Source: a virus. From it: a DNA stretch of 57,359 bases. Under the pieces are notes generated by a model. It was not told the DNA's origin, searched no databases, and worked only from the letters and a program-made list of their open reading frames with translations. The stretch covers positions 1-57,359 of the IMG/VR virus record IMGVR_UViG_3300011429_000011; one strand, given 5' to 3'. Shown one piece after another: positions 1,616 through 33,084 of the stretch. Both the position numbers and the translations under genes were made by a program. Position 1 is the stretch's first letter; each line of letters starts with the position of its first letter.

Positions 1616-1625
1616 GGAGTGCACA

Positions 1626-2054: not shown

Positions 2055-2098
2055 GCGTCGTCTGAGAGTAACGGGGCTACTCTAATAGGAGGATTAGC

Positions 2099-5800: not shown

Positions 5801-6643
5801 GCTGGTTATTCATTGCGCGAAGCAATACAAATGAATCATGATGGTATACAGGAGTTGATTGAGGCTTACAAGCGCCTTAAGATCCCTGTCGATGACGCAT
5901 TCCTCAATATGCTGATGATCGTTGATCAGGTCATTGCAAAGAATCCAACGCTAGTTGCTGGAATCGATGCACTGATCTCTTCAATGGATATCTTGGCAAA
6001 ATTGGGGATGTTGAATAAAGACACATTTGATGCGATGCAGCGCAGTGCATACGATATGTATGTGCAGCTCCAAGCCCAAGTCGCGAGCTTCGGAGGGACT
6101 ACGAAAGATGCCTTGTTACTCATGCAAGATCTTCTGCATAAGGCAGAACAGCGCGCGAAAGAACTCGGCATCCCATTGGATGCAAATCTGCAAATGTTAA
6201 TCGACCAATCTAAGGAACTTGGTATCTGGGAGGACATCGGTAAGACTGCTAACGAGAAGCTCCTAGAAGGGCTCAGCGCTCTTGTTAATAAGATGAATGA
6301 ATTGGTCGATGCGATTAGACGGGCTGGTGATGGGATGCGAAATATTCCTCCGCCGCCACCGGCTCCAAACTATCCAAGTCCAGACGAGCCTCCACCTTCG
6401 GAACAGGCATTCGGTGGCGAGTATATCGTATCTCGACCGACAATGTTCTTGGCAGGTGAAACTGGTCGCCCAGAACGTGTCCATTTCGGTGAAGCTGCAA
6501 AAGGCGGAGGTGGGGTCTCGAAACAAACAGAACTGAAACTTGATAAAGTTGCTTCTGAAGTAGAGGGTCTTCGGAGAGACTTCCAGTTTACAATTCCGAA
6601 TCTACTGGCGAAAGCAACGATGAGCGCAATGGCGAAAGCATAA
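2828..6643 (+). CDS. tail tape measure protein
   Basis: 1271 aa with long coiled-coil/Ala-rich stretches and internal hydrophobic segments. It follows the G/GT pair. At ~0.15 nm per residue the length predicts a ~190 nm tail. Confidence 0.85.
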   Translation: MISVGDLLAVLRLRDEMSPALNQAAQNVTQFGGGTSTAAYQLTLLGRGFREAGVLMSSAFTVPIVAATAATFKFGGEFEAATTRLVSLAGVSKEELGGVRDRILELGPATGIGPNALAEAMYKVSSTTRDTSVGLEILEVAAMGSAAGMGDAKDVAGALTAVINSYGSSNIDAAKAGDILTRAVRDGGAEAKELAPTLANVVPFAAQLGISFEEVAANIATVTKVGVPASEAVTSLASVFAALARETKRGEDALKTVNMSYAQLRAEIKEKGLAATLLELKDAFKGQEHNLIDVVGRLEALKNILSVTGAQAKTYTEEVQRMASATGELRTAFEQITPTQEFMWNQLKAGIEGTFISLSVSLMPVFKKTLELLNGFIPIINSVVKSFGELSSTTQLVVIAFFALLAATGPLLIAFGSLLQAFGNIARGFPIVIGLWQAFTNSVAMNTIGVWALNAASTTAGTVLLGLAHVLGFLIAVWAGWKIGPMIGDWIGISDHIEYASLKLQRWLGLVDQAATDQDLWNSVQENTKRRAGEVGPALDANAEALKRLKDQISGVGLIKDMQDLQTVMRELGEAGKLPPEVLERIAKQAQLLQAQGQKLTPELQRVVDAFGKVTEAGNENIASIREQAEALKRYNKAVKDNIDEDLRLEAERWKTKAYFLDFNGERAIAEVERQYKVMEKAHLDFIESEHKAWIDYANWLDQTGLRGIENAVERYKEVWSHSSAAQQAHANDAKRIYDEMLAYSDKFSAETLAKFKKMWQDAQHLADGTRNWRDNLDLVVGALEVVGDKWATMTAGVLRNLKAIIDIWGSGVKNAHTLAFGQMLGMLAEFIPASDKAAVSAAKFAMQGAAVGSVFGPWGAAIGAGVGAVYGWIKAGQEARKTNDLRDAFIAARGGLDVLHASLVKILGPTGELITQHLLAAKNTKEWEAATKELDATLKHHQEQMNEVVEMIKKLGTNFSAIAKAIIPETKEQLRDLGIIAVASINAALEAGYSLREAIQMNHDGIQELIEAYKRLKIPVDDAFLNMLMIVDQVIAKNPTLVAGIDALISSMDILAKLGMLNKDTFDAMQRSAYDMYVQLQAQVASFGGTTKDALLLMQDLLHKAEQRAKELGIPLDANLQMLIDQSKELGIWEDIGKTANEKLLEGLSALVNKMNELVDAIRRAGDGMRNIPPPPPAPNYPSPDEPPPSEQAFGGEYIVSRPTMFLAGETGRPERVHFGEAAKGGGGVSKQTELKLDKVASEVEGLRRDFQFTIPNLLAKATMSAMAKA

Positions 6644-8871
6644 TGGGTGTTGTTAGTCCAACGATGAAAATCGAGATGGCCCTCGGTGGGTCATTTCGAC
6701 AAAAGGCATATAACGCCACTCCTATCAGTTGGTGGCGAATGTCTGAACGTTCCGGGACTTCTGCTCGAGATACAATGCTCGTTACGCATGGGACCATAAC
6801 TGGTGATATTACGAAAGGTGTTCTGAACGGAAATCCAGAAGGTGGTGGTGGCTTCACATTCGGTGGGTCCACTAGTGAGATTGCGCTTGGCGACCCCACA
6901 ACTCTCGAACCAGGAGCAACAGCATTCTCGCTGTATGTTTCTAAGTTGAAGTGTGCATCAGTCGCAGCCCAACGCGTCATCTATGCGAAATTCAATAACG
7001 CAAATCGTGGCTATGGAATTTCATTTGAGCAGACCACTGGGAAACTCCGCTTTTTTGCTTTCACATCTGGTGGCACAACGCTCTGGGATTTTGTAACTTC
7101 TGCAGGTTACGCAGACGGCAATGAATACGATTGCGCCTTCACATGGGATGGAACAACTGGCGCGAATAAAGTAAAGATCTGGGTGAACGGAACGAATGTC
7201 CAATCAGCCACTGCTGCCGCTGGCACAATTGGAGGAACCTCACCCAATGCGTATATCGGACGATTAGATGAGGCTGGGACACCGCTTCGCTTTATTGGTT
7301 CCATGGATGATCTGATCTATTATGCAAAAGAACTGTCGTCCACAGAGATTACTGCTCTGCGTAATTCTTCTCTATGGACTGATATTTCTAGCGATCTTGA
7401 TGCACATTCTGCTAAGCTCAATTTGAAATGGGGAATTAGTGCCAATGGTCCAAAAGATAGGATGGCCGATCTTGGAATCCTCACTTTCAATTTGAAAAAT
7501 CATGCGGGTAACTCAGCTTCAACACAAGGCTATTATTCTCCGAGTCATTTGAGCCATCGTTCTGGTTTTAACTACGGCGTGCTCACGCGAGTCGTCTTCA
7601 CTTACAGTGGAACTGACTATCAGCGTTTCATCGGCAAAATTGCTGCTATTGATCCGATCCCAGGTCGATACGCATCTCAGCTTGTGAGAATTCGTGTTCA
7701 TGATTTGATGGATGATCTTCTTGAAAATGATTTGCGCAATGTGAAACTCCAGACAAATCAAAATGAGGATGTCCTACAACGGACAGCTCTCGAAGCGCTC
7801 ATCCCAACGACACAACCGCTAGGCCTGAATCTCGATACTGGCTTAGATCTTTCTCCATTTGCATTTGCTGAGCTCGGTGCTGGTGATAGAGTTTACAATC
7901 CACTATTCGATCTGATCATGAGCTCCATTGGATTTGGGCATATGGGGCCAGACGGGGTCTATCGTTATGAAAATCGTAATGCTAGGCAATTAGTTGCGAC
8001 ATCTTTTACATTCAATGATGATATGGTCGGACTAGTAGTTCCGACAACGCTCGATGGTGTCTTTAATCATGTTCGTGCGACGTATCATCCAAAAACAATA
8101 GATGCGTTAGCTACCACAGTCCTCTTCGCACAAACTGGTGATCCACCAGTAATCTCTCCCGGACAGACCATCATCGTTTGGGGCGATTACTACAAGACCT
8201 CAGAGCCTAGTGTTAAGATTGGTGGCACAGCACAGGTCACGCCAGTTTCTGGAACTGATTGGACTGCGAATACGTTAGCTGACGATAGTGGTACGAATAA
8301 AACTGCACAGGTTACAGTTACCACTGGATCTGTAGCAAATCCAACTGGTGATTGTTTTGCATCTACGACGAAGTTCACAATCACAAATAACGATGCTGGC
8401 GCTGTATTCCTAACGAAGTTGCAAATTCGAGGAAAAGGACTCTACGATTTCTCTCCGATCACGGTAGAATCCATAAGCGTTCAATCATATGGTGAACGTG
8501 ATATTGATATCGATTTGAAGTATCAAAACAATTATAATGTCGCGAAGGGAATTGCAGACTATATTCGATTCCAATTTGAGCTGCTTGGTAATCAAGCATT
8601 TTCGCTCACATTCCAGGCGAACTATCAAGACGCCCATATGCTCGCTGCACTATCAGGTCAGATCGGCCAGAAGATAGTTGTCACTGAGACAGTAACAGGG
8701 CTTATCGCCGCAGCACTATTCATTCAGAGCGTCCAACTTGAAGTTGCGGAGCCTGTTTGGATTACTTGCACATTGGGTCTTGCAGCAACATCATTCTTCA
8801 GTGAAGTCTGGCAGATGGGTATTGCTAGTCATGGTGAAGTTGGGGACCACACTTATTTTGGATTTGTATGA
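6643..8871 (+). CDS. distal tail/baseplate protein with N-terminal LamG (concanavalin-like) domain
   Basis: 742 aa; start overlaps the TMP stop (TAATG). Residues ~60-250 look like a LamG/pentraxin-type lectin fold (…GYGISFEQTTGKLRFFAF…YIGRLDEAG…). Confidence 0.5.
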   Translation: MGVVSPTMKIEMALGGSFRQKAYNATPISWWRMSERSGTSARDTMLVTHGTITGDITKGVLNGNPEGGGGFTFGGSTSEIALGDPTTLEPGATAFSLYVSKLKCASVAAQRVIYAKFNNANRGYGISFEQTTGKLRFFAFTSGGTTLWDFVTSAGYADGNEYDCAFTWDGTTGANKVKIWVNGTNVQSATAAAGTIGGTSPNAYIGRLDEAGTPLRFIGSMDDLIYYAKELSSTEITALRNSSLWTDISSDLDAHSAKLNLKWGISANGPKDRMADLGILTFNLKNHAGNSASTQGYYSPSHLSHRSGFNYGVLTRVVFTYSGTDYQRFIGKIAAIDPIPGRYASQLVRIRVHDLMDDLLENDLRNVKLQTNQNEDVLQRTALEALIPTTQPLGLNLDTGLDLSPFAFAELGAGDRVYNPLFDLIMSSIGFGHMGPDGVYRYENRNARQLVATSFTFNDDMVGLVVPTTLDGVFNHVRATYHPKTIDALATTVLFAQTGDPPVISPGQTIIVWGDYYKTSEPSVKIGGTAQVTPVSGTDWTANTLADDSGTNKTAQVTVTTGSVANPTGDCFASTTKFTITNNDAGAVFLTKLQIRGKGLYDFSPITVESISVQSYGERDIDIDLKYQNNYNVAKGIADYIRFQFELLGNQAFSLTFQANYQDAHMLAALSGQIGQKIVVTETVTGLIAAALFIQSVQLEVAEPVWITCTLGLAATSFFSEVWQMGIASHGEVGDHTYFGFV

Positions 8872-9284
8872 TTCTAAGACCTGCAGACTTTCACGAATAT
8901 AACCCATTTGGGCTCACCCTTGTGACACCCGAGGCTTATCGAAATCTCATAGCGAAGACTATGGAATTTCGGGAGGCTCGGACTGGCCGGAAGCCACAAT
9001 TTCCGGATGACATCACGACACCAATTCTTGCATATATCAGCAACAATAAATGGATTATTATCTGTGAATGCGGTGCTGCAAACATGGTGCATCCAGATTG
9101 GAAAATGGCTGGTTGCATGGAGTGTGGCCGTATCCACACGAACGTAATTATTCCCTCGAACTTCGTAGCTATCGAGGCTGTCCTAGAGAAACGATTAGAG
9201 TGGAATCGTAATTTTCTCCCACAAAAGGGCGAAGACATCGAAACACTGAAACGAGAAAATCGCGACCACGGCTTACCCGACTAG
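8868..9284 (+). CDS. hypothetical Cys-rich (zinc-ribbon) protein in tail module
   Basis: ATGA overlap with the upstream gene. Motif CECG…CMECG. Confidence 0.5.
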   Translation: MILRPADFHEYNPFGLTLVTPEAYRNLIAKTMEFREARTGRKPQFPDDITTPILAYISNNKWIIICECGAANMVHPDWKMAGCMECGRIHTNVIIPSNFVAIEAVLEKRLEWNRNFLPQKGEDIETLKRENRDHGLPD

Positions 9285-9292
9285 AGGTCATA

Positions 9293-9922
9293 ATGGCTTG
9301 GACGACACCAGATCCTGTTATCGCTGGGCAATTGATGACAGCATCGTTTTGGAACAATCAAGTTCAGTTGAACATGGTTGAACTCCGTGGCGGTGGCATT
9401 GCAATTGCCTCCCAAGCTGCGAATGATATGATCACTGGTGGTGGATCAACCGCGCTTGCCCGGACTGCAATCGGCGCAGCTCGTCGATTCTGGCGTGTGA
9501 ACAACGCTGGAAATGGTCTCGAATGGGCCAGTTGGGAATTGCCAAATGCGATCGGCACTGCTGGTTACTTTTTGCGTAGTGATGGCACAATTGCGACATT
9601 CCAGCCCGGTGGCCGTCTCAGCACTGCCGCTTCCGCATCGTCTCTAACGCCAGATAATAACGCATTTGAGATCTATGAATATACTGCACTTGCAGCAGGT
9701 CTAACAGTCAATAACATGGCGAATCCAGGTCCTGATGGCTATCGTTTCTTCTTCCGTATCAAAGATAACGGAACTGCACGGTCTTTATCCTGGGGGACTT
9801 CTTATCAACCCGGAGGCGTTGCATTACCGACAACTACAGTTATCAATAAAGTGTTGCATCTGGCTTTCATGTACAAAGCTGGCGTTGCGCACTATTTGAT
9901 TGGAGCTGCACAAGAGGCATAA
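9293..9922 (+). CDS. putative minor tail/fibre protein
   Basis: 209-aa ORF with RBS. It lies in the tail fibre region. No recognisable motif. Confidence 0.4.
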   Translation: MAWTTPDPVIAGQLMTASFWNNQVQLNMVELRGGGIAIASQAANDMITGGGSTALARTAIGAARRFWRVNNAGNGLEWASWELPNAIGTAGYFLRSDGTIATFQPGGRLSTAASASSLTPDNNAFEIYEYTALAAGLTVNNMANPGPDGYRFFFRIKDNGTARSLSWGTSYQPGGVALPTTTVINKVLHLAFMYKAGVAHYLIGAAQEA

Positions 9923-10791
9923 TGGCTGGCCTCTTTCGCAGACTTATCGTTGCTGGCGGTGGCGCTGGCGGGAGTGATGCCGGTGGCGGTGGTGGCGGCG
10001 GTTTCGTCAGCGATACGACGCTAGATCTTGCACCGGGGACTTATTCGATAGTCGTCGGTGCAAGCGTTGCGGGTGGCTCTGGTGATGGAGGAACTGGAAA
10101 TAACTCGTCTGCATTCGGATTCACATGTAACGGTGGCGGCGGCGGAAAAGGAACGAGTGGCGCGGGTCTCAATGGAGGAACAGGCGGCGGTGGTGCAGGT
10201 GATTGGGTAGTCACTGGATTTGATATCGATGAAAACGGTGGAACTGGCTCTCAAGGTGGAAACGGCGGCAAAGGTCGTCGTGTTCAAAATGGTGATCCAG
10301 CCTTTGAACGAATTCTTGGTGGCGGTGGTGGCGGAGCAGGTGCTAACGGACGGAATGCTGAACAAGACGCAACTAACGTCGGCGGCTTCGGTGGTGCTGG
10401 TATTACTTCTGACATTACCGGATCATCACTTAAATATGGCGGCGGTGGCGGCGGCTCTGGTGAAGTAAACGGTGGCGGTGGGACTGGTGGAGATGGTTCT
10501 AACGTCACTGGTGGAAATGGTGGACAGGGCTCTGGTGGAGGTGGTGGCGCAGCTGACGCTTCTGACGGAACTGCGAATACTGGCGGCGGTGGAGGCGGAG
10601 CACCGATCTTTGGAACCTACGGATTTAATGGTGGGAATGGCGCATCTGGTGTAGTCTACATTCGCTTCAAGAAAGGCTATGCAATCGCAACGGGTGGCTC
10701 AATTTCTACAGTTGGCAGCGATTGGCTTCATACATTCACGAGCAGTGCTAACTTCGTTGTTACAAGTATCGGTGGTGGATTTTTCTGGTAA
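9922..10791 (+). CDS. glycine-rich tail fibre-like protein
   Basis: 289 aa, >40% Gly in GGxGG/GNGG repeats, with a C-terminal beta-rich end (GVVYIRF). TAATG overlap with the upstream gene. The DNA shows GGCGGTGG tracts. Confidence 0.5.
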   Translation: MAGLFRRLIVAGGGAGGSDAGGGGGGGFVSDTTLDLAPGTYSIVVGASVAGGSGDGGTGNNSSAFGFTCNGGGGGKGTSGAGLNGGTGGGGAGDWVVTGFDIDENGGTGSQGGNGGKGRRVQNGDPAFERILGGGGGGAGANGRNAEQDATNVGGFGGAGITSDITGSSLKYGGGGGGSGEVNGGGGTGGDGSNVTGGNGGQGSGGGGGAADASDGTANTGGGGGGAPIFGTYGFNGGNGASGVVYIRFKKGYAIATGGSISTVGSDWLHTFTSSANFVVTSIGGGFFW

Positions 10792-10800
10792 GGAGCTCAG

Positions 10801-12330
10801 ATGAGATATGTTTATTTTCTGACACCAAAAGAACTGGGAGTTATCGGACGTATGCGCCTACGTAGCGATAACGGTGAAATCATGGAAGCAGTTCACGATA
10901 CAGTTGCTGATCTTCCAGCGCTCGTCGTCACAATTCCAGACAGTGTCCCGAATGGAGTTGGTTGCACCCGTTATCTCGAAGCCGATGGTTATATTGCTCG
11001 AGAGGAACATGGAATCCTACGTCTCACGAGCATCAATCCAGTCACTAATTCAGTCGCATTCGAAAGCGATATGGGAACATTGGAAAAGGCGGGTAGCCGC
11101 CCTTTCGTACGTAGCGGCATCGTCCGTGCGGCGGGCCGCTCATTTCAAGATAACGAAGGATTTTTCTATCCGCTCGGTGAAACTCTGTTCTGGGCACCGA
11201 GGGGTTGGAAATTCGAGAATGACCGAATAAAGAAGAATATCGAATGGGCTGCAAGCTATCAGGTTGACGCCAATCGAATTCTCTGCGCGGTAGGCTGGCC
11301 GGGAAATGAAAATGATCCAACATGGCCGGACTATCAGCAAGTTCTCGCGGAGCTCATTGATTGGACGTATGACCAGTGTGGTATGCGGACTATTGCTACT
11401 ATCTGGGGTGGCGGTCATTGGGACCCTCTTCATACTACGGATCTTGTATGTAATGTTATCCGAGACCGTAAGCATAAGATACTCTATGCTGAAGCGGTTA
11501 ATGAGTCGTTTAATAACCTTCCGGATGTAGGCATAGTCCGGGAGATGTCAAGGCGACTCATGGCAACTGGCGTGCTCACAGTTTCGTCTTGCTTGAATCC
11601 TCCGACTATGGAGCAGTATAACGAACTTGCGCTTGGCTGCTCCAATATGACAACTGTCCATCTTGACCGCAGCTACGGAGATCTGGACTGGCGCTTCGTC
11701 CGTCAACCTTGGGATGTCAAGCAATTCCCCGGACCATGTTCGCAAGGCGAGCCAAAAGGTCCCGGTTCCAGTGTGTCCCCGTCCTCGAACCCACTCCAGC
11801 TGGCTCACGACCGACTTGTCGGGATCATATGTGGTGCAGGTTCCTATGTTATTCACAATGCAGCAGGCGTCTACGGTATCCCGAACAATAACGCTGGAGG
11901 TGGACACCGCACTGCGAATCTCTGGGAAATGCCTGGCATCGATGCAGTCATGCGTGTTGTCCGAAAAGCTGATTCAATTCTCCCGATTGGAGTAGAGGGC
12001 TGGCGTAAAGCGAATGATGGTTGGCGTCCGCCACTACAGCAACATCCACTACCCTCGCAAGAGTTCTGGGAAGGCGATTCCATTAATCCAAACGAACGTG
12101 GAGTCAACAAGAACTACTGTGCAATCGAAGGAGCGCATTTCGTCTGCACTCCAGCAGGCATCAAGAACATGGCGCATCTTCGTGCGACATGGCCTTGCAC
12201 GGTAAGGGTTTACGATACAGAACTCGCAGAATTAGTTATCGAAACAGATCTCGACTCCGGTGAAGACCTTTTGCTCCCCGGTGTGATGAATTCGATGCGC
12301 GCGTATACGGTCGTCGGAGACATCCACTAA
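10801..12330 (+). CDS. glycoside hydrolase-like (clan GH-A TIM-barrel) protein; tail depolymerase or endolysin candidate
   Basis: 509 aa, RBS AAGGAG. The motif …YAEAVNESFNN… resembles the NE(P) acid/base motif of GH5-type enzymes. It sits immediately upstream of the holin. Confidence 0.45.
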   Translation: MRYVYFLTPKELGVIGRMRLRSDNGEIMEAVHDTVADLPALVVTIPDSVPNGVGCTRYLEADGYIAREEHGILRLTSINPVTNSVAFESDMGTLEKAGSRPFVRSGIVRAAGRSFQDNEGFFYPLGETLFWAPRGWKFENDRIKKNIEWAASYQVDANRILCAVGWPGNENDPTWPDYQQVLAELIDWTYDQCGMRTIATIWGGGHWDPLHTTDLVCNVIRDRKHKILYAEAVNESFNNLPDVGIVREMSRRLMATGVLTVSSCLNPPTMEQYNELALGCSNMTTVHLDRSYGDLDWRFVRQPWDVKQFPGPCSQGEPKGPGSSVSPSSNPLQLAHDRLVGIICGAGSYVIHNAAGVYGIPNNNAGGGHRTANLWEMPGIDAVMRVVRKADSILPIGVEGWRKANDGWRPPLQQHPLPSQEFWEGDSINPNERGVNKNYCAIEGAHFVCTPAGIKNMAHLRATWPCTVRVYDTELAELVIETDLDSGEDLLLPGVMNSMRAYTVVGDIH

Positions 12331-12341
12331 GGAGGTGACTA

Positions 12342-12608
12342 TTGAGGACTTTCACCGGATACGTAGTATTCTTTGCCGCCCTAGGAATGATGTGTGGTCT
12401 CGCGGGTAACGAGATCACAAAGCTTCAATCCTGGAATGCGATTTATACTCCTGAATTTGTGGGGAAGATCCTCCTTGAGATTTCTACGGTTATCGCAACA
12501 TTTCTCGGCGGTAAATTGATTCCAACACAAAGCGATCGTCGTGAAGTTTGGAGTGAAGAAGAACGGAAACGTCGTCTCAAATACAGACATCAGGGAGGAT
12601 GGAAATGA
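12342..12608 (+). CDS. holin (class II-like, two TMDs)
   Basis: 88 aa starting at TTG, 5 nt after GGAGGT. Two hydrophobic helices (VVFFAALGMMCGLAG; ILLEISTVIATFLGG) are followed by a highly charged C-terminus (SDRREVWSEEERKRRLKYRHQ). Confidence 0.6.
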   Translation: MRTFTGYVVFFAALGMMCGLAGNEITKLQSWNAIYTPEFVGKILLEISTVIATFLGGKLIPTQSDRREVWSEEERKRRLKYRHQGGWK

Positions 12609-13024
12609 CGCAGTTGCTGTGCTTCAGTCGGAAACAGAATGCGATTCTGGGATTGATTTTCATCACGACCCTCGTGATGAGTTTCGGGATCGCAGCATGT
12701 TCGTCGAACGTGCCGCCGAATCTCTCGCCGCAAGCAAAGATCGCATATGTCAACACGCAGGTAATCAAGTCTCTCGACCTGCTGCGCGACATCACGATTT
12801 CGGCGAATGAGCAGACTCCACCGCTCGTATCTACGGAAGACACGAGGAAGGTTGTGCTCTATCATCAATCGGCCATCAAGACAATCATGGCGATGCCAGC
12901 CGGTTGGAAAACTACAGTTACGACGGGACTCGACGAAACCATCAAGAACCTGTCCGAGAATACGCAGAAACTCCTCTCGCCATATATCGCACTGGCGAAG
13001 ACGATTCTTGCGCAGATTCCGTAG
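12599..13024 (+). CDS. lipoprotein (lysis-associated?)
   Basis: Signal peptide with lipobox I-A-A-C (…LVMSFGIAAC|SS). It overlaps the holin stop by 10 nt. Confidence 0.55.
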   Translation: MEMTQLLCFSRKQNAILGLIFITTLVMSFGIAACSSNVPPNLSPQAKIAYVNTQVIKSLDLLRDITISANEQTPPLVSTEDTRKVVLYHQSAIKTIMAMPAGWKTTVTTGLDETIKNLSENTQKLLSPYIALAKTILAQIP

Positions 13025-17601: not shown

Positions 17602-18402
17602 TTACATCCCCTGAACGTTACCCGTCTGCGCGGCGACACTTTCACGTTCGAGCACTTCCGCGTCGAACGTATCCGCATCCGCCGGGAGCTCTTCCTCGAA
17701 CTTGATCGCTTTGTCGGCGACCGCTGCGAACGTTTTCTTCGCGTAATCGAGGAGTTCGCCACTGGCGAAGCCGGCGTTCTTGACCTGCGGGATTGCGAAT
17801 CGCCCCTTTGCGTTCTTCGTCATGATCGTACTGAGCGCGTAAACGCCGGTGAACACCGCCGTTCCGCGCATGGCGATCAACGCATTGAGCTGACGTGCAA
17901 TCTTCAGGCCGGTGCCCTTGAAGGAGACGGAAACGATTTCCCGTGAGGGGAGGAGCATGATCACGAAATCGTAGAACTTCGTCGCGATCGGTGGCTTGCC
18001 GTCAGCCTGGAATGCGGTCCGCGGATCGTTGGCCGGGACGTTGGGATCTTTCACGCCACCGCCAAGTTCACGTGGAACGAACTCCACCCAACGCGGTCGA
18101 TCCGAACGAACGATGATGAACGGCACCGGGCCGTTGCCATAGATCTGCTTCGTGAGGTTGTTGAACATATTGCCTTCAATCAACCCCTCAATGAACTTCG
18201 GGTCGCTCTCATCGCGTTCCGGGCTGAGCGACTGCGCGATGCCGAGTCGCGGCATCTGCATGTCGTCGCGTGTGATGTTCTCGGTGCCGGTGCGGTCTCC
18301 CACCTTGACTTCATCAGGGCGCTCCGCCACAACACCTTCGATCTTCATCAGATCGTTTGGCCCGGTCGTTGCCAATGCGTTCTTGTTCTGCTTTTCAGCC
18401 AT
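17602..18402 (-). CDS. hypothetical protein (GC-rich gene)
   Basis: 266-aa ORF. No confident motif. Confidence 0.5.
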   Translation of the reverse strand: MAEKQNKNALATTGPNDLMKIEGVVAERPDEVKVGDRTGTENITRDDMQMPRLGIAQSLSPERDESDPKFIEGLIEGNMFNNLTKQIYGNGPVPFIIVRSDRPRWVEFVPRELGGGVKDPNVPANDPRTAFQADGKPPIATKFYDFVIMLLPSREIVSVSFKGTGLKIARQLNALIAMRGTAVFTGVYALSTIMTKNAKGRFAIPQVKNAGFASGELLDYAKKTFAAVADKAIKFEEELPADADTFDAEVLERESVAAQTGNVQGM

Positions 18403-19015: not shown

Positions 19016-19657
19016 CTATTTCGTATACACGACTTTCACTCGCGCTGTGAGTTCCACGCCTGCTGGTGGCTCCTCACCTTTCAACAGCAATTCCTTCGCG
19101 ATCGCATTCACAGTCTGCCACGGCAGCGCCAACGAATCCTCGAGCCCATTCTCGACCGCCCAGATGCGATTTGCCCGTTTGTCGTTGACTGTGGCGTGAG
19201 GCTCGTATTGCGTGCGGACCGAACCGCCATCCTCGAGCGCGATGTTGGTCGTGCCTTCAGCTTCGTACTGCTCCGCCAGAACTTGCTTGTAGGCCTCTTC
19301 GACCACATTCGTGATCTTTTCTTGCGCTTCGAGAGCGGCCTTGACCACGCGGACGTTCCGATATCGACGGGCGAAGGTTGAGGCGTAACGCTGGCCGTCA
19401 ACAGTGCAGATGAGTGCGTCGTTGATCACCTTCAGAAGCGCTGTCACTTCGAGGAGCAAATCGTCAAGCGCGTCCATGCTCAACTCTTTATCGGAGCTGG
19501 CTGTGAACTCTTCGGTGAATGGGCCAGGATCGTTCTGAGCCCTCGGTTCGAGGATTGCAGCCTTGACGCCATTGACCTTCGCCTGAAAATCTGGCTCTGT
19601 CCCGAGGGACCGTGGAAGAAGATCAATTACGTGTGCGTATTTGCCCTTTTTTCCCAT
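19016..19657 (-). CDS. hypothetical protein
   Basis: 213 aa, RBS GAGGAG. It lies ~35 nt downstream of promoter P2. Confidence 0.5.
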   Translation of the reverse strand: MGKKGKYAHVIDLLPRSLGTEPDFQAKVNGVKAAILEPRAQNDPGPFTEEFTASSDKELSMDALDDLLLEVTALLKVINDALICTVDGQRYASTFARRYRNVRVVKAALEAQEKITNVVEEAYKQVLAEQYEAEGTTNIALEDGGSVRTQYEPHATVNDKRANRIWAVENGLEDSLALPWQTVNAIAKELLLKGEEPPAGVELTARVKVVYTK

Positions 19658-19694
19658 CAGCTCCTCTGCTGCTAGTGAACGGCCAGTATACCAC

Positions 19695-19723
19695 GTTTAA
19701 AACGTTGACGCAAGTCAGTTACG
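19695..19723 (-). promoter_or_regulatory. conserved phage promoter P2 (TTGCGT-17-TATACT, CAACGTTTTAAACGTGG spacer)
   Basis: Same motif family as P1. The palindromic core here is ACGTTTTAAACGT. Confidence 0.6.
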
Positions 19724-21038
19724 CTGTCATCAGAATTGTTCTTGGTGGATAAATGATACCGTTCGGATTGTTCGGCACCGTGCGGAGCACGCCATTCATC
19801 GTCCATGTATAGCCTGGACTATATTTTGCGAGCGTCGGCATTCCAGGCGCTGCGTCTGGGCATTTCATGCCGTATGCGCCTTCGTAGAATGTGTTGCCAT
19901 CGATGATCATATTGGACCACAGATCCGCTTCACCATCGAAGTCGAAGAAAGAATGGATGCTCGTACCGGAAAACCTGTTCCGCAGGATCCGTAGGCCGGA
20001 GAATCCACGCGCAAACTGGAACGTTCGCTGATTCGCGCCCCACTCTGGACTGATATCCTCGAACAGATTGTCCTCAAATGAGACGTTGGACATCGGCACT
20101 GATGCCGCACCTACTCGATAATCTCGTGCGTCCAATTGGACTGCACCAGCCAAGTGACGGAGCATGTTACGTCGAATGATCACGTCCGAAATCGTAGTCT
20201 CGGGCTGGTCCTTGTCCTGATTCTGCACCGTGAGCACGATGCCATAACCGATCTGGCCGTCGACCCACGAATAGTCCAGATTGCAGTCTTCAAGGATAGC
20301 ACCCTTACAATTCTTGAGCTCGTAGAGGTTCTTGCATTTGTATCCTTTTCCGCGCCACTGCAACGGTTTCCGCAGCGTGGACTTCCGGACCACCACGTTC
20401 GATGGAATATCCGCTGCTACCGGGCATCCACCTCCACCGATGAGTATGTTCTCACTCGCGCTTTCCAGCACGCAACGCTCAATGAGAACATCGTGTAGAC
20501 CCGACCATCCACCGACGGCTTGCGTCTCTTGTCCGACACCAAAGATGTCTAGCACGCTGCTATCGCTCATACGGAAGCCGGTGCTCCGCAGCCACACGCC
20601 ACGTCTCTGACCACTCATACTCCCTTGCAAGACACCGCCCTGCAACACAAGACGAGGACCAGTGGCCATCAATGCTCGCTCGGGACGTTTACCGCGCACC
20701 GCGTAGCCAATCAGCTTCACGTCTGGCGCTTGGACATCCACCTGTCCATAGATCGCTGGCCCGATGATCGTCACAGGTTTGGAGATCACTAGGTCCTCTT
20801 CACCAGTGTCTGTTAGCACCTCAGGTGACACAACGATCGTTGCTGGGACCGGGGCTTGCTCGAGAGTCGACAGCAAGGAGCCACCTGCTTCGATCATAAT
20901 GACCGGCGCTGAGCCTCCAGCACCGGCAGTCGCTTGTGCCTGCTGTTGCAGTGCAATGGACTGATCTTGTAGATCTTGCGCTTGTCTGACTTTCGCGATG
21001 GATTCATCGAGTAAGGCTCGAACGTCGGTGCTGCTCAT
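19719..21038 (-). CDS. right-handed parallel beta-helix (pectate-lyase-fold) protein with N-terminal coiled coil; depolymerase/tailspike-like
   Basis: 439 aa. Repeated beta-helix rungs: …ENILIGGGGCPVAADIPSNVVVRKSTL…NLYELKNCKGAILEDCNLDYSW…VIIRRNMLRH…. Confidence 0.5.
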   Translation of the reverse strand: MSSTDVRALLDESIAKVRQAQDLQDQSIALQQQAQATAGAGGSAPVIMIEAGGSLLSTLEQAPVPATIVVSPEVLTDTGEEDLVISKPVTIIGPAIYGQVDVQAPDVKLIGYAVRGKRPERALMATGPRLVLQGGVLQGSMSGQRRGVWLRSTGFRMSDSSVLDIFGVGQETQAVGGWSGLHDVLIERCVLESASENILIGGGGCPVAADIPSNVVVRKSTLRKPLQWRGKGYKCKNLYELKNCKGAILEDCNLDYSWVDGQIGYGIVLTVQNQDKDQPETTISDVIIRRNMLRHLAGAVQLDARDYRVGAASVPMSNVSFEDNLFEDISPEWGANQRTFQFARGFSGLRILRNRFSGTSIHSFFDFDGEADLWSNMIIDGNTFYEGAYGMKCPDAAPGMPTLAKYSPGYTWTMNGVLRTVPNNPNGIIYPPRTILMTA

Positions 21039-21333
21039 GAACTACTCCTTGTTGATTTCGTCGACGTTTGTCTTCGTATCGTAGATGATCTGTTCGATCT
21101 TTTGACGAAGAACAGGAATGCCATGCTCCTGAAGATTCAAGCCGAGTGTCACTGTTCGCCATGAGTAGCCGCTTGCCATCAGTGTCGTAGTTGGTCAGAT
21201 AACAATACGCTTGCTTGCCCATCAGCGGATCGCCATCAATCTGACTGAATTTCCAGCCGGAGATCTCAGCCCATTTCTCGACATCTTCGGCCTTGTCACG
21301 CGGCATGGTGATGTGTGCTTCGAATTTAGACAT
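21004..21333 (-). CDS. hypothetical protein (start MSKFEAHIT at 21333)
   Basis: Its start overlaps the stop of the small upstream ORF (ATGTCTAA). The C-terminus overlaps the next gene. Confidence 0.35.
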   Translation of the reverse strand: MSKFEAHITMPRDKAEDVEKWAEISGWKFSQIDGDPLMGKQAYCYLTNYDTDGKRLLMANSDTRLESSGAWHSCSSSKDRTDHLRYEDKRRRNQQGVVHEQHRRSSLTR

Positions 21334-21502
21334 GGATCCTCTTTCTCTCTTTTGCTGCACGGATCAACATCCGTTTCGCATGGTCCTCGCGTTCCCACTT
21401 GTGATAGAACTCGCGGGTCTGCGTCTTCTTCGCCATCCGTGCAGCACGGCGGGCAAGTTGATTCTTGGTCCAACGACGCTTCAAGGACTTGAGCTGTGCC
21501 AC
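21323..21502 (-). CDS. small basic protein (59 aa), not in the ORF track
   Basis: GTG start 5 nt after AGGAGG. K/R-rich. Translationally coupled to the downstream gene. Confidence 0.35.
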
Positions 21503-27248: not shown

Positions 27249-27791
27249 TCAGTAATTCCTCAGCTCCCAGATGAGAGTATTCCGCCGTGGTATCTTTCCA
27301 AGATCGTATGGGTATGTTGCGAACTCAATCGTGGCGTCTGGGTAAAGATCAAAGAGACATTCAATATCTCCGAAACTGTTTTCGCAACAGAAGCTACGAA
27401 CAATGGTTCTAGTTGATAGTCCTCTGTAGGGTCGCATACAACCTGCTGCCATTGCAGGTCGCATACGAAGACCTGTTCGAATTCCGAGGTATCCTTCCCA
27501 GCCAAAGATTCCTTGACAAATTTCACCTTGTAATTGAACATCGGTATCTGGGGCGGCTTCATCCATGATGAATCGTCGACCAGCATGCGACCAATCGTTG
27601 AATTTTGCGAAGAGATCGCTTCGAGGCACAACTGAATGAAGTCCCCCTCCCGCAATCCCAATTTCCCGAAATCCATAGTATGGACTCTCTGCGTCCCAAG
27701 CGTCTTGGATTGTTCGCCAGTTCCTGAGCGTGTTGCCAAGACAACCTCGCTCCATGAGCTCGTAGAAGTGAGACTTAAACCGAAGTTCCAC
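27249..27791 (-). CDS. hypothetical protein
   Basis: 180 aa. I chose this over the overlapping alternative-frame ORF 27260..27868, which is Ser/Arg low-complexity. Confidence 0.4.
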   Translation of the reverse strand: MELRFKSHFYELMERGCLGNTLRNWRTIQDAWDAESPYYGFREIGIAGGGLHSVVPRSDLFAKFNDWSHAGRRFIMDEAAPDTDVQLQGEICQGIFGWEGYLGIRTGLRMRPAMAAGCMRPYRGLSTRTIVRSFCCENSFGDIECLFDLYPDATIEFATYPYDLGKIPRRNTLIWELRNY

Positions 27792-28863
27792 CGACGCTCT
27801 CCGGCTTCTTTGGCTCTTCTCGTTTTTCGCGACGACGCTGCAACCACTCTCGACAAGCGCGGTTCCAATCGTTATCTACGCTCCCGAGAGTTAGAACCCT
27901 GTCTGCATCCCCGTATCTTTTCATCCGATGATATTCGTGTGCTTCCAAACAGACCGAAACTTCATGAGGCCAAGATCCCTTTGGAAAAATATGATAACCG
28001 GTATGCAATAGATCGTTATCTGCTAATGTCAAAATCTGTGCGATGTGTATATCGATCTCTTCTGGATTTTCCATTGGTGTATGATGCACACGTTCTTTGA
28101 ATGCATCATAGTAGCTACCAATGTAATCGCCACGATCGATCAAATTACGGATCGGTTCACATTGCTTCAGCGTTTCGAGATAGGCGTGCCAGTTCACACT
28201 CACCTGATACATCCGTCCCATCGGACAGCCAATTTTCAGAGCCATGTATTCGAGAAGCATGGAAAAATGGACGGCATTCGCGCCGTAGGCTCCCCAGATG
28301 ATATCGTTAGACCGGCAGAAGATTATTAAATCCAGCCTACCGATTTGATCACGCTGAAATGTGGCGGTCGTATTGCACGGAACATCTTTGCCTGGATTAT
28401 CCAAGTCAGTCTCAGCATCCCACATTTGTAGAATGCAACGACGATCATTTGGATCTTTCCGTAAGCGATCAGCGATCGCTCTCAATTGATCATAAGGTGC
28501 CGTTGGATGTTGTAAATCAAACCAATTGCGCCAACGAGCTCCGTATGCACCATGGAATGTATGGCCATCGTCAGAATAGCTCGCCATGTTCTTGGCATAT
28601 TTGACGACGCCAGCAAGATCGTCACGACCAGCTAGCATCCACAGCGATTCGTAGAGATGGAAGAATGGGTTAGCGTCGCGCTGCGACCAGAATAGGACTC
28701 GCTGCCACGGTTTGTTGTAGATCGTTGTGACTGGAACTGGTGAGATGCGGACTGGGCCGTTACGACTATCGCGATTGTAGCCCTCGTAGTGCAGATAGCG
28801 GAGCGCGAATGGCAGAGCTTCGTGGACGTTCTGCACAAAGAGAGTTTTCATTTGAAAATCCAA
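27775..28863 (-). CDS. thymidylate synthase-family enzyme (ThyA or deoxypyrimidine-monophosphate hydroxymethylase) with ~100-aa C-terminal extension
   Basis: …NDRRCILQMWDAETDL… (cf. ThyA RRxIxSAWNPxDL). Catalytic Cys in …DVPCNTTATFQ…. RSNDIIWGAYGAN resembles the ThyA RSCDVFLGLPFN region. Confidence 0.65.
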   Translation of the reverse strand: MDFQMKTLFVQNVHEALPFALRYLHYEGYNRDSRNGPVRISPVPVTTIYNKPWQRVLFWSQRDANPFFHLYESLWMLAGRDDLAGVVKYAKNMASYSDDGHTFHGAYGARWRNWFDLQHPTAPYDQLRAIADRLRKDPNDRRCILQMWDAETDLDNPGKDVPCNTTATFQRDQIGRLDLIIFCRSNDIIWGAYGANAVHFSMLLEYMALKIGCPMGRMYQVSVNWHAYLETLKQCEPIRNLIDRGDYIGSYYDAFKERVHHTPMENPEEIDIHIAQILTLADNDLLHTGYHIFPKGSWPHEVSVCLEAHEYHRMKRYGDADRVLTLGSVDNDWNRACREWLQRRREKREEPKKPESVGGTSV

Positions 28864-28965
28864 TCAAGTAATCGCACCATTAGTGCTGAAATGAGCATAG
28901 CTCGAAGACAAGAGAAGCAGACACAAATGCCCGGATCTCCGCAGAGCTTACAGGTTGTAAACCAC

Positions 28966-29661
28966 TTAGTCCAAGATTTTGGCGCCACTGTTCACCAATC
29001 TCTCCGGAGTTCCCCAGTCCTGGAAATTTGTGATGACATGCGCATATTTCGGCCCAGGATAATCATTCATGGCCATCGACAGATACGGCTCTTGACTATG
29101 ACGGATTGCTCGGCTGATTGCTATGTCCAGCGCAATCTCGAGCTTCCGAACTGAATTGAAGATGCGAATTCCAACGATCCCCCATTGAGAAATCGGTTCT
29201 TTCTCGACGAAGCGCGTTGGGAATGGGATTTGGTCAACTCGAGAGGCATTGGGGTCGAATGTCTGTGTAACTGCTACGACTACTTCCGCAATTTGCGAAT
29301 GTGTGATCATCTTGAAAATATCGATTGGATCTAGGACCATGTCACAATCAGCGATTAGGACAGCATCGTTAGCTGGGAGACCAATAATCGCTTGTCGAAT
29401 CGTATCAGCTTGTCCGATGGTCTCTATGACTATAGTTTTCGTACCCTTGTAGTCTTCAGGTCTTTCGACACCGGCTGGCAGTGCCGTCAGGACATATGGG
29501 TCCTCTACGGGCAGAGTTCCTCGAACATGGGCCAGCATTGATAGCGTTAGTCCATTTCTGTCTTGGACTTTTAGTAATGGCTTAATAGTCGAATAGCCGA
29601 CATCGGCAAATCGCTGAGATTGTCCGGCTGCTGGAATTATAGCCCACATTCGTTTAGACAC
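28966..29661 (-). CDS. sugar-phosphate nucleotidyltransferase-like (MurU/GlmU/RmlA fold)
   Basis: N-terminal signature AIIPAAGQSQRF, the G-x-G-x-R nucleotidyltransferase motif. Confidence 0.55.
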   Translation of the reverse strand: MSKRMWAIIPAAGQSQRFADVGYSTIKPLLKVQDRNGLTLSMLAHVRGTLPVEDPYVLTALPAGVERPEDYKGTKTIVIETIGQADTIRQAIIGLPANDAVLIADCDMVLDPIDIFKMITHSQIAEVVVAVTQTFDPNASRVDQIPFPTRFVEKEPISQWGIVGIRIFNSVRKLEIALDIAISRAIRHSQEPYLSMAMNDYPGPKYAHVITNFQDWGTPERLVNSGAKILD

Positions 29662-30380
29662 TTAATCCTTACCTCCCGACACCATGAAACGACGGATTCA
29701 CGTCGTTTCGGTTTGGAGAACTCAAATTTCTCGATTCGAAGTGTTGTTGCTGCCAACCAGAAAGAGACCTTATGTCGGATACTAGGATTCAGCCAAAAAT
29801 CTGGAAATTTATAACGAATAATCGGCTCTCCGTATGCAGCAACTTCCCATCCAAAATAAGATTGCATGATTCGTGCCATATCGCTTTCCCGGCATTGTGG
29901 CACGTAGGCTCTAGGCGGACGTGGATCACAGAGGATAAGTTGGCCGTTACGGAGTAGTGTGTTTGAAGCGGTTGGATCACCATGTGTCATGCAGAAAGAA
30001 GTCGGCACTGCCCAGTCCGGAACTTCAAGACCGAGCTCCTTGTGATGATCCTTATAGCTTTTACCAGCAACATCGTAATCTTGCGATGGCCGAGACCAAA
30101 CACGCTTCTTTAGTAACTCTGTAATTTGGCACAGAAGATCGGGATGACGCGCCGCCTTCTCGAGCTTCTCCATCACGTAGCCATCCGTCGTTAGACAGAG
30201 GATACGTGGCGTGACATCTTTACCGAGTACCTCGCAGTAAGCGCCTTCCTGAAGGCACTCCGGCCCGGTTTTGAAAACTGCTGGCAGCAGAAGCGAACCG
30301 CTATTGCCTGTTACGAAGTCCATCTTCCATTGCCCGTTTCCACTGTACGACAACTTCCATTCGAGGGACTGAACCTGCAT
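29637..30380 (-). CDS. APH/choline-kinase-fold phosphotransferase (anomeric sugar kinase-like)
   Basis: Catalytic loop …MTHGDPTASNTLL…ILCDPRP (HGD-x4-N…D), typical of APH/AmgK/NahK-type kinases. The 3' end overlaps the nucleotidyltransferase-like gene. Confidence 0.5.
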   Translation of the reverse strand: MQVQSLEWKLSYSGNGQWKMDFVTGNSGSLLLPAVFKTGPECLQEGAYCEVLGKDVTPRILCLTTDGYVMEKLEKAARHPDLLCQITELLKKRVWSRPSQDYDVAGKSYKDHHKELGLEVPDWAVPTSFCMTHGDPTASNTLLRNGQLILCDPRPPRAYVPQCRESDMARIMQSYFGWEVAAYGEPIIRYKFPDFWLNPSIRHKVSFWLAATTLRIEKFEFSKPKRRESVVSWCREVRIKCLNECGL

Positions 30381-31077
30381 AGTCTTTCTGGGTCACTCGG
30401 ACATAGGCTGGGAAGAACGACGCGAGCTTCATGACATCAGTATTGTTCTTTTCGACAGTGCGTTCGTTCGTGCAGCCACCAGGATTCCCGAAGGCTTGGT
30501 CGACAACGAACGAAAAATTCACGCTGTTTGGAAATCCTTTTGTTAGGAGCTGAAGACAAACATCCATGTCTTCATGCGTGCCAATTCGCCCGAACTCTGC
30601 GTGTTTCCGTAGTGTAGGAACATGGTAGCCGAGGACATACATCATCCTCTTACCGAGTTGCCATCCACCTGCTTGCGCCTTCTCGCTGATTCCACCGCCG
30701 CGAGCTGAGAATCCAGCATGAGGAACTTCTTCAGAGAGGACGGCGTCTAGCTCGACGAATGCTCGGATAATATCTTCTCCCTCAGCTTTTCGGAAACGTG
30801 CGGGATCATCTTGGCGTCGAACCGCGAACCGAAGATCATCATCGAGCATCACCAATTTTTCTGACTGTGCGGTTTCGATTATCCAGTGACGTTTCGCCGC
30901 AATCCCCATTTCTGGGTCGGGCTGCTCGCTCACTTCACAGGCTGGGAAGTTATTCCGATGGAAGACCGCTTCTTTTGGAGGACAGACAATCGTAACCTGC
31001 TCGTGCAGAGCCTTCGGCAAGTTCTCCAGAGTAGTCTGTCGAGAGATGCGGCCTTTAGTCGGGATGATGATCCTCAT
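30301..31077 (-). CDS. putative GT-A-like glycosyltransferase (DxD), paralog 1
   Basis: MRIIIPTKGR…VMLDDDLRF. It shares the N-terminal MKIIVPSIGR…FVDDDIR architecture with 31232..31990. Confidence 0.4.
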   Translation of the reverse strand: MRIIIPTKGRISRQTTLENLPKALHEQVTIVCPPKEAVFHRNNFPACEVSEQPDPEMGIAAKRHWIIETAQSEKLVMLDDDLRFAVRRQDDPARFRKAEGEDIIRAFVELDAVLSEEVPHAGFSARGGGISEKAQAGGWQLGKRMMYVLGYHVPTLRKHAEFGRIGTHEDMDVCLQLLTKGFPNSVNFSFVVDQAFGNPGGCTNERTVEKNNTDVMKLASFFPAYVRVTQKDYAGSVPRMEVVVQWKRAMEDGLRNRQ

Positions 31078-31334
31078 TGTCCGTGTTTCAATAACCTGAG
31101 TTGTGCCTCAGCTTCCGCAATTCGCATATAGGTATTGGAATTCGCATTTGCAAATCCAATATAGAACGGGCGTTCTAGCGCGTAGTCGATATCTCGTCGC
31201 AATGCTTCGAGATGATTGCGTCGACCACGCTCTAGCTCGGCAATTCGAGCTTCTTTATCTTCGACCACGCAACCCTCAATCCGATACCGATGTTCTGGCT
31301 GTGAGTCGTATTCTTTGTTTCCCGAATCGAACAA
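31074..31334 (-). CDS. hypothetical protein
   Basis: 86-aa ORF; overlaps the paralog 2 gene. Confidence 0.3.
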   Translation of the reverse strand: MFDSGNKEYDSQPEHRYRIEGCVVEDKEARIAELERGRRNHLEALRRDIDYALERPFYIGFANANSNTYMRIAEAEAQLRLLKHGQ

Positions 31335-31990
31335 ACGTGCGGATACAGATTCACTAATTTCATCAGGCAGTCGATCGTGATCTGTTCATTGCGCCACGAG
31401 TTGCAGCCGCCAACCGATGGGCTGACATTGCTGTGCGTTGCGCAGTAAGTGACAATCGTCCCATTACCTCGTTCTATTGCATGGATAACGAGAGCAATGT
31501 CTTCATAGACTGGCAATACTTCAAGTGGACAGTCGTCGAAGTGGGTGGGATTGATCCCATAGACGGTTGCCACGAACTTGTTACGAATCGCGAAGAAATC
31601 GTGACCGATTGTTTCAACTTTGTCTACAGCGTAATTCGAGAAGAGCTGCGGTGCGAGCCCTGCCATCGAGAAGCCGCCGAGACCGACATGCTCCTCGATT
31701 TGCTCGATCATCTTCTCGACACTGTTAACAGCCTTGAGGCTTACACGAATGTCATCATCGACAAAGATGAAAGGCTCCCGAACGCTCTCCATGATTTCTT
31801 TGCGGACGAGGCCAGTGTGCTTACAGCAGCTATCTGAGAGATGCATGATAGAGCAACCAGGATATGCAGCCCGGTATGCTTCGACTTCATCACTATGCAC
31901 AGCAAATACAATCGGACGATTGGCTTCCGGGAGCCATTTCATCGAATTGCACTTACCGGCTCTACCAATTGATGGGACGATGATCTTCAT
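31232..31990 (-). CDS. putative GT-A-like glycosyltransferase (DxD), paralog 2
   Basis: MKIIVPSIGRAGK…IFVDDDIRV. Paralogous to 30301..31077. Confidence 0.4.
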   Translation of the reverse strand: MKIIVPSIGRAGKCNSMKWLPEANRPIVFAVHSDEVEAYRAAYPGCSIMHLSDSCCKHTGLVRKEIMESVREPFIFVDDDIRVSLKAVNSVEKMIEQIEEHVGLGGFSMAGLAPQLFSNYAVDKVETIGHDFFAIRNKFVATVYGINPTHFDDCPLEVLPVYEDIALVIHAIERGNGTIVTYCATHSNVSPSVGGCNSWRNEQITIDCLMKLVNLYPHVCSIRETKNTTHSQNIGIGLRVAWSKIKKLELPS

Positions 31991-32193
31991 AATTCAGTTT
32001 GTAATACTGCTTGTCTTATGTTATCCATATTCGGAATATACAAGCCTTTGACGCGACCAGTATAGCCAATATCATTAATTTGTTTGATGGCGTCTTTCTT
32101 TACAACTTCAGAGATTTCTAAAACCGATTTATCTCTGAATTCGTGAAGATCTACGTCTACTTCTATGAATAATCTAATCCGTAGCATATTTCT

Positions 32194-33084
32194 TTACACT
32201 TGAAATCGCCGTTTGAGCCGCGAGCCACCGTAGGCGCGCATGTATTTGTCGAATTCACAATTCCAGTGCTCAACTTCCCGCATCTCCCATTGTTTCCATT
32301 CAGCAGGCCAATAATTCGGATTCTTGCTATGTTCGAGGAGCTCCTGCATGTATTCCAGCATCTTGCGCTGGTGTCCTACTGAACAGGAGAAAACATCGGA
32401 ATCGTTGTAGACGACCCAACCCAGTCCTCGAGCGCATCCGGGGCCAGCGTTTGCCCACGTCATTATGTCTTGTGCTTGATCAAGGATCGGTGTCCAACGA
32501 AGATCACTGACAGCTTCGTACGCCATGAAGCCGCCCATGAAATGGAGCTCGCGAATACTTTCCCATGCAACTCGAAGAGATCGATGTTCGGGTGGCTCAA
32601 CCATCCAGTCTGCAAGCATCCGTGGTAGCTGTGGCCGTGCCTCGTCGATGCAGGCCAGAATCCCTTCTAGCTTGCTGACACCATCACCAGCTTTGATAAT
32701 GTAGGCGCCTGTTACCACAGGACTGACACCAGTCAGCCGCGAACGGGCTTCCTGTGTATCCCAATCGTAGATGAGCAGATCTTTGATTGCTTCGCCAGTT
32801 TCGATACGATTGAACCAGCGGAAAATGAGCGTAGACTCTAATAGCTTCAAAAGTTTATAATTGCCAGACGATGGAAATCGTTCGAGGATGCCTTTGCGGA
32901 TCGTTTCCCGGAACCACACTGTTGTCTTGTCATCTTCACGATGAACTTGACAAAAGCGCCAGTTTTGAAAATGTGTGTCCGTTGTCCAGGGCCACGGTTT
33001 GCCAGCTTCCCGATTCAACTTTATCTGATAGCGTTCGCGAGCGGTCGCAAAGAAATGGTCAAGTAAGACGAATTTAGCTGGCAT
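32194..33084 (-). CDS. hypothetical protein in modification cluster (near-leaderless, first gene after P4)
   Basis: 296 aa. The ATG lies 11 nt after the -10 of P4. Confidence 0.5.
   Translation of the reverse strand: MPAKFVLLDHFFATARERYQIKLNREAGKPWPWTTDTHFQNWRFCQVHREDDKTTVWFRETIRKGILERFPSSGNYKLLKLLESTLIFRWFNRIETGEAIKDLLIYDWDTQEARSRLTGVSPVVTGAYIIKAGDGVSKLEGILACIDEARPQLPRMLADWMVEPPEHRSLRVAWESIRELHFMGGFMAYEAVSDLRWTPILDQAQDIMTWANAGPGCARGLGWVVYNDSDVFSCSVGHQRKMLEYMQELLEHSKNPNYWPAEWKQWEMREVEHWNCEFDKYMRAYGGSRLKRRFQV

Follow-up and report, generated by a model that had tools for sequence, protein, structure and literature searches.

A compact beta-helix protein encoded outside the tail module of an uncultivated phage as a candidate nonvirion glycan-degrading enzyme

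The DNA analyzed here, called the window, is a 57,359-nt stretch of a virus (IMG/VR virus record IMGVR_UViG_3300011429_000011, positions 1 to 57,359). On its minus strand, flanked by UvrD helicase and ligase blocks, lies the gene of a 439-amino-acid (aa) protein that is predicted to consist almost entirely of a parallel beta-helix. The protein is tentatively read as an accessory depolymerase-type enzyme, probably not a virion component, which is freed at lysis. We favor a free enzyme released at lysis over a spike docked to the particle through its N-terminal helix because the genes of the window-like subclade (5a) lie outside recognizable tail modules, unlike those of the long forms of the family, because bacterial relatives are secreted and fused to CBM domains, because the signal peptides on some phage-encoded relatives are hard to reconcile with virion assembly, and because the near-invariant residues of the family are kept. 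Depolymerases with a beta-helix are already established in phages, also in versions that lack large anchor domains; the novelty lies in the sequence family, its minimal architecture, and the clade-wide placement outside recognizable tail modules.

The open reading frame (ORF) list and retranslation gave an ATG start, a stop codon at 19719-19721, and a length of 439 aa, exactly the gene delimited in the first-pass annotation. Five further metagenomic assemblies of this phage, of up to 73 kb, encode the identical protein. The GC content of the gene (0.548) and that at third codon positions (GC3, 0.595) are similar to those of its neighbors, indicating no compositional sign of recent transfer. 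AlphaFold2 (AF2), run with a seven-sequence alignment, gave a confident model (predicted local distance difference test [pLDDT], 83.1; predicted template modeling score [pTM], 0.84). In this model, a helix at residues 3 to 37, with a pLDDT of only 52 to 58, is followed by a Gly/Ala linker and then by about 41 short strands between residues 46 and 438. The strands are predicted to form a three-sheet right-handed beta-solenoid with stacked rungs, i.e., a pectin-lyase-like fold. The beta-helix proposed earlier from the letters was thus recovered by the prediction, and the IGGGG turn cited for it was located at residues 199 to 203. From the proposed N-terminal coiled coil only the helix was predicted, not the coiled coil itself.

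No additional C-terminal trimerization, chaperone, or CBM domain is present in the model, since the strands reach residue 438 of 439. At the N terminus, no particle- or baseplate-binding domain was found with AF2, Pfam, or PHROG, only the helix and the linker. The small size and missing particle-binding domain pointed out in the first-pass annotation were therefore borne out, with the C-terminal domain absent as well, and the protein is one encoded outside the structural module that has no structural attachment domains. The N-terminal helix may serve in self-association or oligomerization, in docking, or as a flexible tether. The sequence has no signal peptide and no PHROG match, and its match to Pfam PF13229 (Beta_helix) stayed below threshold (14.5 bits versus a gathering cutoff of 25.9; E = 0.028).

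The family first appeared rare, with 4 to 5 relatives in a word-indexed search, but the exhaustive profile search showed this to be an artifact of the index. At E ≤ 1e-3, the profile search returned 6,830 representatives, of which 3,162 had E ≤ 1e-30. Matches in genomes were overwhelmingly in metagenome-assembled genomes of soil Acidobacteriota (Vicinamibacterales, Blastocatellia, and Pyrinomonadaceae), Rokubacteria, and Nitrospira, and many members carry signal peptides. Fusions among 53 long members involved CBM6 (5), CBM35-type (5+2), malectin (2), BACON (2), Ig-like, and fn3 domains. The family core was matched only by the generic Beta_helix or, in long members, weakly by NosD; PF13229 was detected in 19 of the 53 long members at E ≤ 1e-3, and a precomputed match to it exists for the homologs P0002 and P0003.

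Residue conservation was counted over 318 distinct family sequences, with the numbering of the protein from the window. K236, E240, and K242 are invariant (100%); conservation is 99% for G201 and G202, 98% for W228 and Q262, 97% for N237, 94% for Q173, 93% for D306, 92% for E196 and K224, 89% for E192, and 87% for N197. R146 and N273 are likewise conserved in at least 89%, and position 171 is acidic in 99% (D in 89% and E in 9%), being E in the window. None of the residues with at least 89% conservation is changed in the protein, which differs at five moderately conserved positions. The family signature is KNxxExK, and the conservation suggests that the rung carrying it may be catalytic. Since it keeps this signature and the other near-invariant residues, the protein probably is enzymatically active and cleaves glycans. 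A noncatalytic beta-helix, in which enzymatic function was lost and which would act as a glycan-binding, scaffold, or inhibitor protein, is the least probable of the explanations we weighed, as retention of all of these residues and of an acid at position 171 is the pattern expected from selection on an active site.

No PDB relative was found by phmmer at E ≤ 10, and the best PDB matches of the family profile had E values of 0.37 and 0.46. Structural identity was 14 to 16% to GH87 alpha-1,3-glucanase (7c7d and 5zru) and GH110 alpha-1,3-galactosidase (9beh, 8pvs, and 7jw4), neither of which matched the family profile significantly (best E = 0.46, for a C-terminal stretch of 8pvs). For PL6 lyases (chondroitinase B and alginate lyases; 6qps, 7o78, and 1dbg), it was 9 to 13%, with no sequence-level match. 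The invariant Lys/Glu/Lys set would suit a PL6- or PL9-type lyase as well as a hydrolase, and lyase chemistry is only a possibility. Compared with the classical tailspikes of P22, HK620, Det7, CBA120, Acinetobacter, and Klebsiella, which have both N-terminal particle-binding and C-terminal domains, the protein has neither and is 100 to 300 aa shorter; its gene does not share a strand with the tail module, from which it is 6.7 kb distant.

Three collection scans yielded viral relatives on about 120 viral contigs and at additional metagenomic loci; ORFs were called, the cores were aligned to the family hidden Markov model (HMM) and clustered, and neighboring genes were annotated with PHROGs, Pfam, local iterative HMMs, and tblastn against GenBank. 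The long forms (500 to 800 aa) lack the N-terminal helix of the family and have C-terminal extensions of 130 to 240 aa. At 12 loci, the long-form gene directly follows a series with the size pattern of a tape measure (∼1,100 aa) and proteins of 137, ∼270, 900 to 1,200, and ∼720 aa. At one of these loci (L022), 639 GenBank phages have a match to the 1,162-aa neighbor, as a "tail protein" or "tip attachment protein." The long forms occupy the canonical tailspike position at the ends of tail modules.

The window-like subclade 5a comprises 13 distinct loci (31 to 46% identity), nine of them annotatable, and at none does the gene lie in a recognizable tail module. At 5 of the 13 loci (the window, L010/L011, L046, L045, and L007), the beta-helix gene is located beside replication genes. 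It follows a UDG-fused family A DNA polymerase (PolA) and a primase at L010/L011 and L046, has a primase nearby at L045, and follows a PolB-exonuclease subunit at L007, where a 1430-aa neighbor had no PDB relative. At four others (L008/L009, L001, L128, and L126/L271), it is next to or near the large terminase gene (TerL): the order at L008/L009 is TerL, beta-helix gene, 119-aa ORF, and portal, and at L126/L271, on a 122-kb contig, the gene lies between NAD-salvage genes and TerL. The idea that viral homologs following very large ORFs mark tail-module ends was rejected, as PHROGs and Pfam identified these neighbors as DNA polymerase, primase, exonuclease, TerL, and portal. No other gene of the window is syntenic with the 5a loci, indicating that the beta-helix gene behaves as a mobile accessory gene at module junctions.

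A more far-reaching explanation is that the window-like compact clade is a distinct class of phage beta-helix enzymes that never belong to virions, captured by phages from secreted bacterial CAZymes and expressed with replication or packaging genes. Such enzymes would have host glycan intermediates or glycosylated DNA as substrates, on which they would act inside or from within an infected cell, or they would be monomeric free depolymerases founding a new CAZy family with the KNxxExK signature. We consider this improbable.

Within the window, the plus-strand block at 614-13024 is a siphovirus-type tail module with a tail terminator, a major tail protein (phrog_9522), a tape measure (2828-6643; PF10145), a 742-aa Laminin_G_3 protein, and further distal genes. 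The module ends 6.7 kb from the beta-helix gene, so the earlier observation that this gene is located off the tail genes and on the opposite strand held. The minus-strand gene run extends from 13064 to about 48900 and includes DNA ligase, proteins like gp34 and gp33 of Pam3, the beta-helix protein, a UvrD-type helicase, an SNF2 helicase, an RNase T-like exonuclease, a thymidylate-synthase homolog, a nucleotidyltransferase, two TAGT glycosyltransferases, an HMUDK-like protein, and PolA. The stop codon of the small ORF upstream (TAG, 21042-21044) precedes the ATG of the beta-helix gene by 3 nt, and a Shine-Dalgarno sequence, AAGGAG, is located within the 3' end of that ORF, 6 nt 5' of the ATG. 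This spacing and the position of AAGGAG indicate cotranscription and translational coupling with the upstream replication-block genes. Matches to consensus promoters and terminators in the 13- to 25-kb region did not exceed those in shuffled sequence (7 versus 8.1 and 10 versus 11.4, respectively); the early-type promoter P2/P3 to which the first-pass annotation ascribed the gene is putative. The gene is most simply read as a member of the replication-block transcription unit.

If the protein is a free enzyme, it would be produced with the minus-strand replication and DNA modification array, not with the tail genes, would accumulate in the cytoplasm, and would be released by lysis. Outside the cell, it may degrade host capsule, exopolysaccharide, or another envelope glycan near the burst site, which would help the progeny to spread and adsorb. 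Here we infer catalysis on polysaccharide, nonvirion status, and the timing of expression as well as the biological benefit. Cell-wall remodeling, which the first-pass annotation also had in mind, received no specific support.

Export is suggested for a part of the family that phages encode. Signal-peptide-like N termini were detected by a hydropathy heuristic in 11 of 89 viral homologs, including L144 and L164, the latter with the helix and the beta-helix behind its signal peptide. Ten representatives are compact forms in which a Sec-type signal peptide likewise accompanies the helix (P0046, P0081, P0083, P0095, P0096, P0101, P0121, P0146, P0149, and P0151). Judged by sequence, the compact members of this kind, L164 and L144 among them, resemble glycanases that are encoded by phages and exported. 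An exported protein would not be expected in virions assembled in the cytoplasm, indicating that at least a part of the phage-encoded family consists of free extracytoplasmic enzymes.

The most serious competitor, although we hold it to be rather unlikely, is an auxiliary virion tail spike or receptor-destroying enzyme encoded off the tail module, in which helix 3-37 would dock to the tail or baseplate or trimerize as a coiled coil and the beta-helix would degrade host surface glycan at adsorption. Several observations lean this way and weigh against a free enzyme. All compact forms have an amphipathic helix of 20 to 35 residues followed by Pro or a Pro-rich linker, and the same helix and linker occur in the sister subclade at tail-module ends (L130-L135), which fits a docking peptide. 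In phages related to that of the window, more distant members with the N-terminal helix (26% identity; L169 and L190/L191) are located at the end of the tail module. The tail module of L169 is syntenic with the 742-, 138-, 209-, and 509-aa genes of the window; L190/L191 shares SNF2, ThyA-like, and DUF7168 genes with the window at 42 to 53% identity, and there a phage lysozyme gene follows the beta-helix gene. KP34gp57, a Klebsiella phage capsular depolymerase (PDB 8bke), is a 630-aa beta-helix protein reported to be virion associated, and about 26 flexible N-terminal residues anchor it to the particle (PMC10653864). With an anchor this short as a precedent, the missing "obvious particle-binding domain" is compatible with virion association. 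Also to be set against a free enzyme are the 4 of the 13 5a loci without annotatable context (L006, L012, L125, and L127), an expression timing that is inferred from gene order only, and the lack of relatives among 50,697 GenBank phage records (DNA search and tblastn with three family queries).

Other features weigh against a docked spike. No member of the window-like clade is located in a recognizable tail module, and the gene in the window shares its strand with replication-block genes, to which it is coupled, the tail genes being on the other strand. KP34gp57 requires its C-terminal CBM-like domain for trimerization (PMC10653864), whereas the 439-aa protein ends with its beta-helix; the two have no detectable sequence similarity, and the latter is encoded among replication genes. 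In most members, the helix is just 20 to 25 residues long, and its sequence varies among phages whose tails are unrelated. Signal-peptide-bearing phage variants likewise do not fit parts of a virion. The earlier suggestion of a soluble, nonvirion glycanase is accordingly favored by the 5a context, the secreted CBM-fused relatives, the signal peptides, and the retained residues, with attachment to the virion through the N-terminal helix still plausible. The probability that remains beyond these two explanations is shared by an intracellular role, a noncatalytic role, and anything else not considered.

An intracellular role during replication would consist of trimming or remodeling sugars on hypermodified DNA or of destroying nucleotide-sugar or lipid-linked glycan intermediates of the host, so that synthesis of capsule, exopolysaccharide, or receptor stops, for superinfection exclusion or resource capture. 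It would be consistent with the absence of a signal peptide, the coupling to early/middle-type genes, and the presence in the same strand block of a ThyA-like gene, NTP_transf_3, two TAGT genes, and HMUDK. We regard it as very unlikely, since hypermodification genes co-occur with the family only here and at L191 and were found within 10 kb at 0 of the 12 other closest-clade loci, at least 12 genes and about 6.7 kb separate the beta-helix gene from the nearer TAGT gene, and the secreted CBM-fused bacterial relatives and exported phage relatives point to a polymer substrate outside the cytoplasm. A tie of the protein to DNA hypermodification was rejected on the same distribution. The hypermodification genes themselves form a thymidine/pyrimidine set at 27775-33084 on the minus strand (TAGT stands for TET/JBP-associated glycosyltransferase [PMC7968844]), and their sequences suggest that the DNA of this phage is glycosylated or otherwise hypermodified. 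The coordinates of these genes and of the features of the beta-helix gene are given in Table 1.

Table 1. Features of the beta-helix gene and the hypermodification genes in the window
Feature	Position	Strand	Basis
Gene of the 439-aa beta-helix protein	19719..21038	-	ORF list, AF2 model
N-terminal module, residues 1-44: amphipathic Q-rich helix (predicted 3-37) and Gly/Ala linker, up to Pro45	20907..21038	-	AF2
Predicted right-handed parallel beta-helix domain, residues 45-439, ∼12-13 rungs	19722..20906	-	
Family signature KNLYELKN (K236, N237, E240, K242), candidate active-site rung	20310..20333	-	Conservation
Motif VLESASENILIGGGG (E192, E196, N197, G201, G202)	20427..20471	-	Conservation
Motif GQETQAVGGWSG (E171, Q173), one rung before the E192/E196 motif	20499..20534	-	Conservation
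Shine-Dalgarno AAGGAG	21045..21050	-	Read from sequence
Thymidylate-synthase homolog (ThyA-like)	27775-28863	-	
NTP_transf_3	28966-29661	-	
TAGT genes	30301-31077 and 31232-31990	-	
HMUDK_hel protein	32194-33084	-	

Among the compact N-helix forms of subclade 5b, the genes at L130-L135 follow a tape-measure-like ORF and two large tail-type ORFs that could not be annotated, and the gene at L134 adjoins TerL. At L164 (9677-11041 of a 71-kb viral contig), a single 64-aa ORF lies between the beta-helix gene and a TerL-like gene. The commonest 5b neighbors, U461 and U1049, received no annotation from PHROGs, Pfam, or GenBank phages. Truncated forms of about 350 to 360 aa, without the N-terminal helix and the first rungs, were also observed (L127 at 9947-11026, P0021, P0097, P0122, and P0140). 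The L127 gene begins 2 nt past the end of a 718-aa ORF, within a dense block that looks structural, and the truncated forms may represent a catalytic part split from a separate carrier protein.

Compared with its counterparts in four assemblies of this phage (L002-L005, 99.95% identical), the small gene upstream of the beta-helix gene (about 21042-21360, minus strand) has a 1-nt indel. L002-L005 have a 96-aa ORF that terminates 3 nt 5' of the ATG of the beta-helix gene, and in the window, the frame is broken near 21180, giving an ORF at 21004-21360 that overlaps the start of the beta-helix gene. A variant of the assembly or of the sequence is the probable explanation. Inspection by eye of the 61 nt that separate the beta-helix gene from the gp33-like gene found TTGCGT, 17 nt, and an extended -10-like element, TGgTATACT (19685-19713, minus strand), together with GAGGAG 5' of the ATG of the gp33-like gene at 19657. 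The consensus scan did not list this element, as its -35 hexamer matches at only 3 of 6 positions; it may be an internal promoter for the genes downstream of the beta-helix gene. Those downstream neighbors on the minus strand are the gp33-like gene (19016-19657; DUF7307, E = 8e-6), which also has a weak match to a "minor head protein" PHROG, and the gp34-like gene (17602-18402; PF23977, E = 2e-34; phrog_2402). The adjacent pair, unassigned in function, is present in cyanophage Pam3 too. Farther along the minus strand, an 852-aa protein (41642-44200) matches the shoulder domain of Major Vault Protein (PF11978) and, weakly, Vault_3, which is unusual for a replication-side block of a phage.

The last large gene of the tail module encodes a 509-aa protein (10801-12330, plus strand), whose homologs were found on two contigs that carry members of the beta-helix family (L169 at 8108-9685 and L125 at 6305-7420). 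At L169, the homolog is located directly upstream of the beta-helix family gene, and at L125, the homolog is just upstream of a P22-like portal gene. The latter position raised the suspicion that the protein is TerL, which was rejected on the absence of a Walker A motif. No match was found in Pfam, PHROG, PDB, or GenBank phages, and single-sequence AF2 gave a pLDDT of 35.5. The protein has invariant N234-E235 and E317-P318 pairs, which may resemble those of clan GH-A glycosidases, and it may be a second glycanase partnering the beta-helix protein.

The usual route to phage depolymerases is to seek beta-helix domains among tail-module genes, whereas the compact clade of these uncultivated soil phages sits by replication or packaging genes. 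Its members lack the usual anchor and trimerization domains and belong to a family that is common in Acidobacteriota and has no characterized member. If enzymatically active and free, they would extend the set of known nonvirion phage glycanases, would provide naturally minimal and possibly monomeric depolymerase scaffolds, a form into which KP34gp57 had to be engineered, and would offer a way in to the chemistry and substrate of an unstudied family of carbohydrate enzymes. If they are instead docked through the helix of about 25 to 35 residues, they would represent a minimal mode of attachment and receptor-binding proteins that can be missed by scans restricted to tail modules. In principle, such a finding is no surprise, but with it a class of phage glycanases that has been overlooked takes a concrete and testable form.
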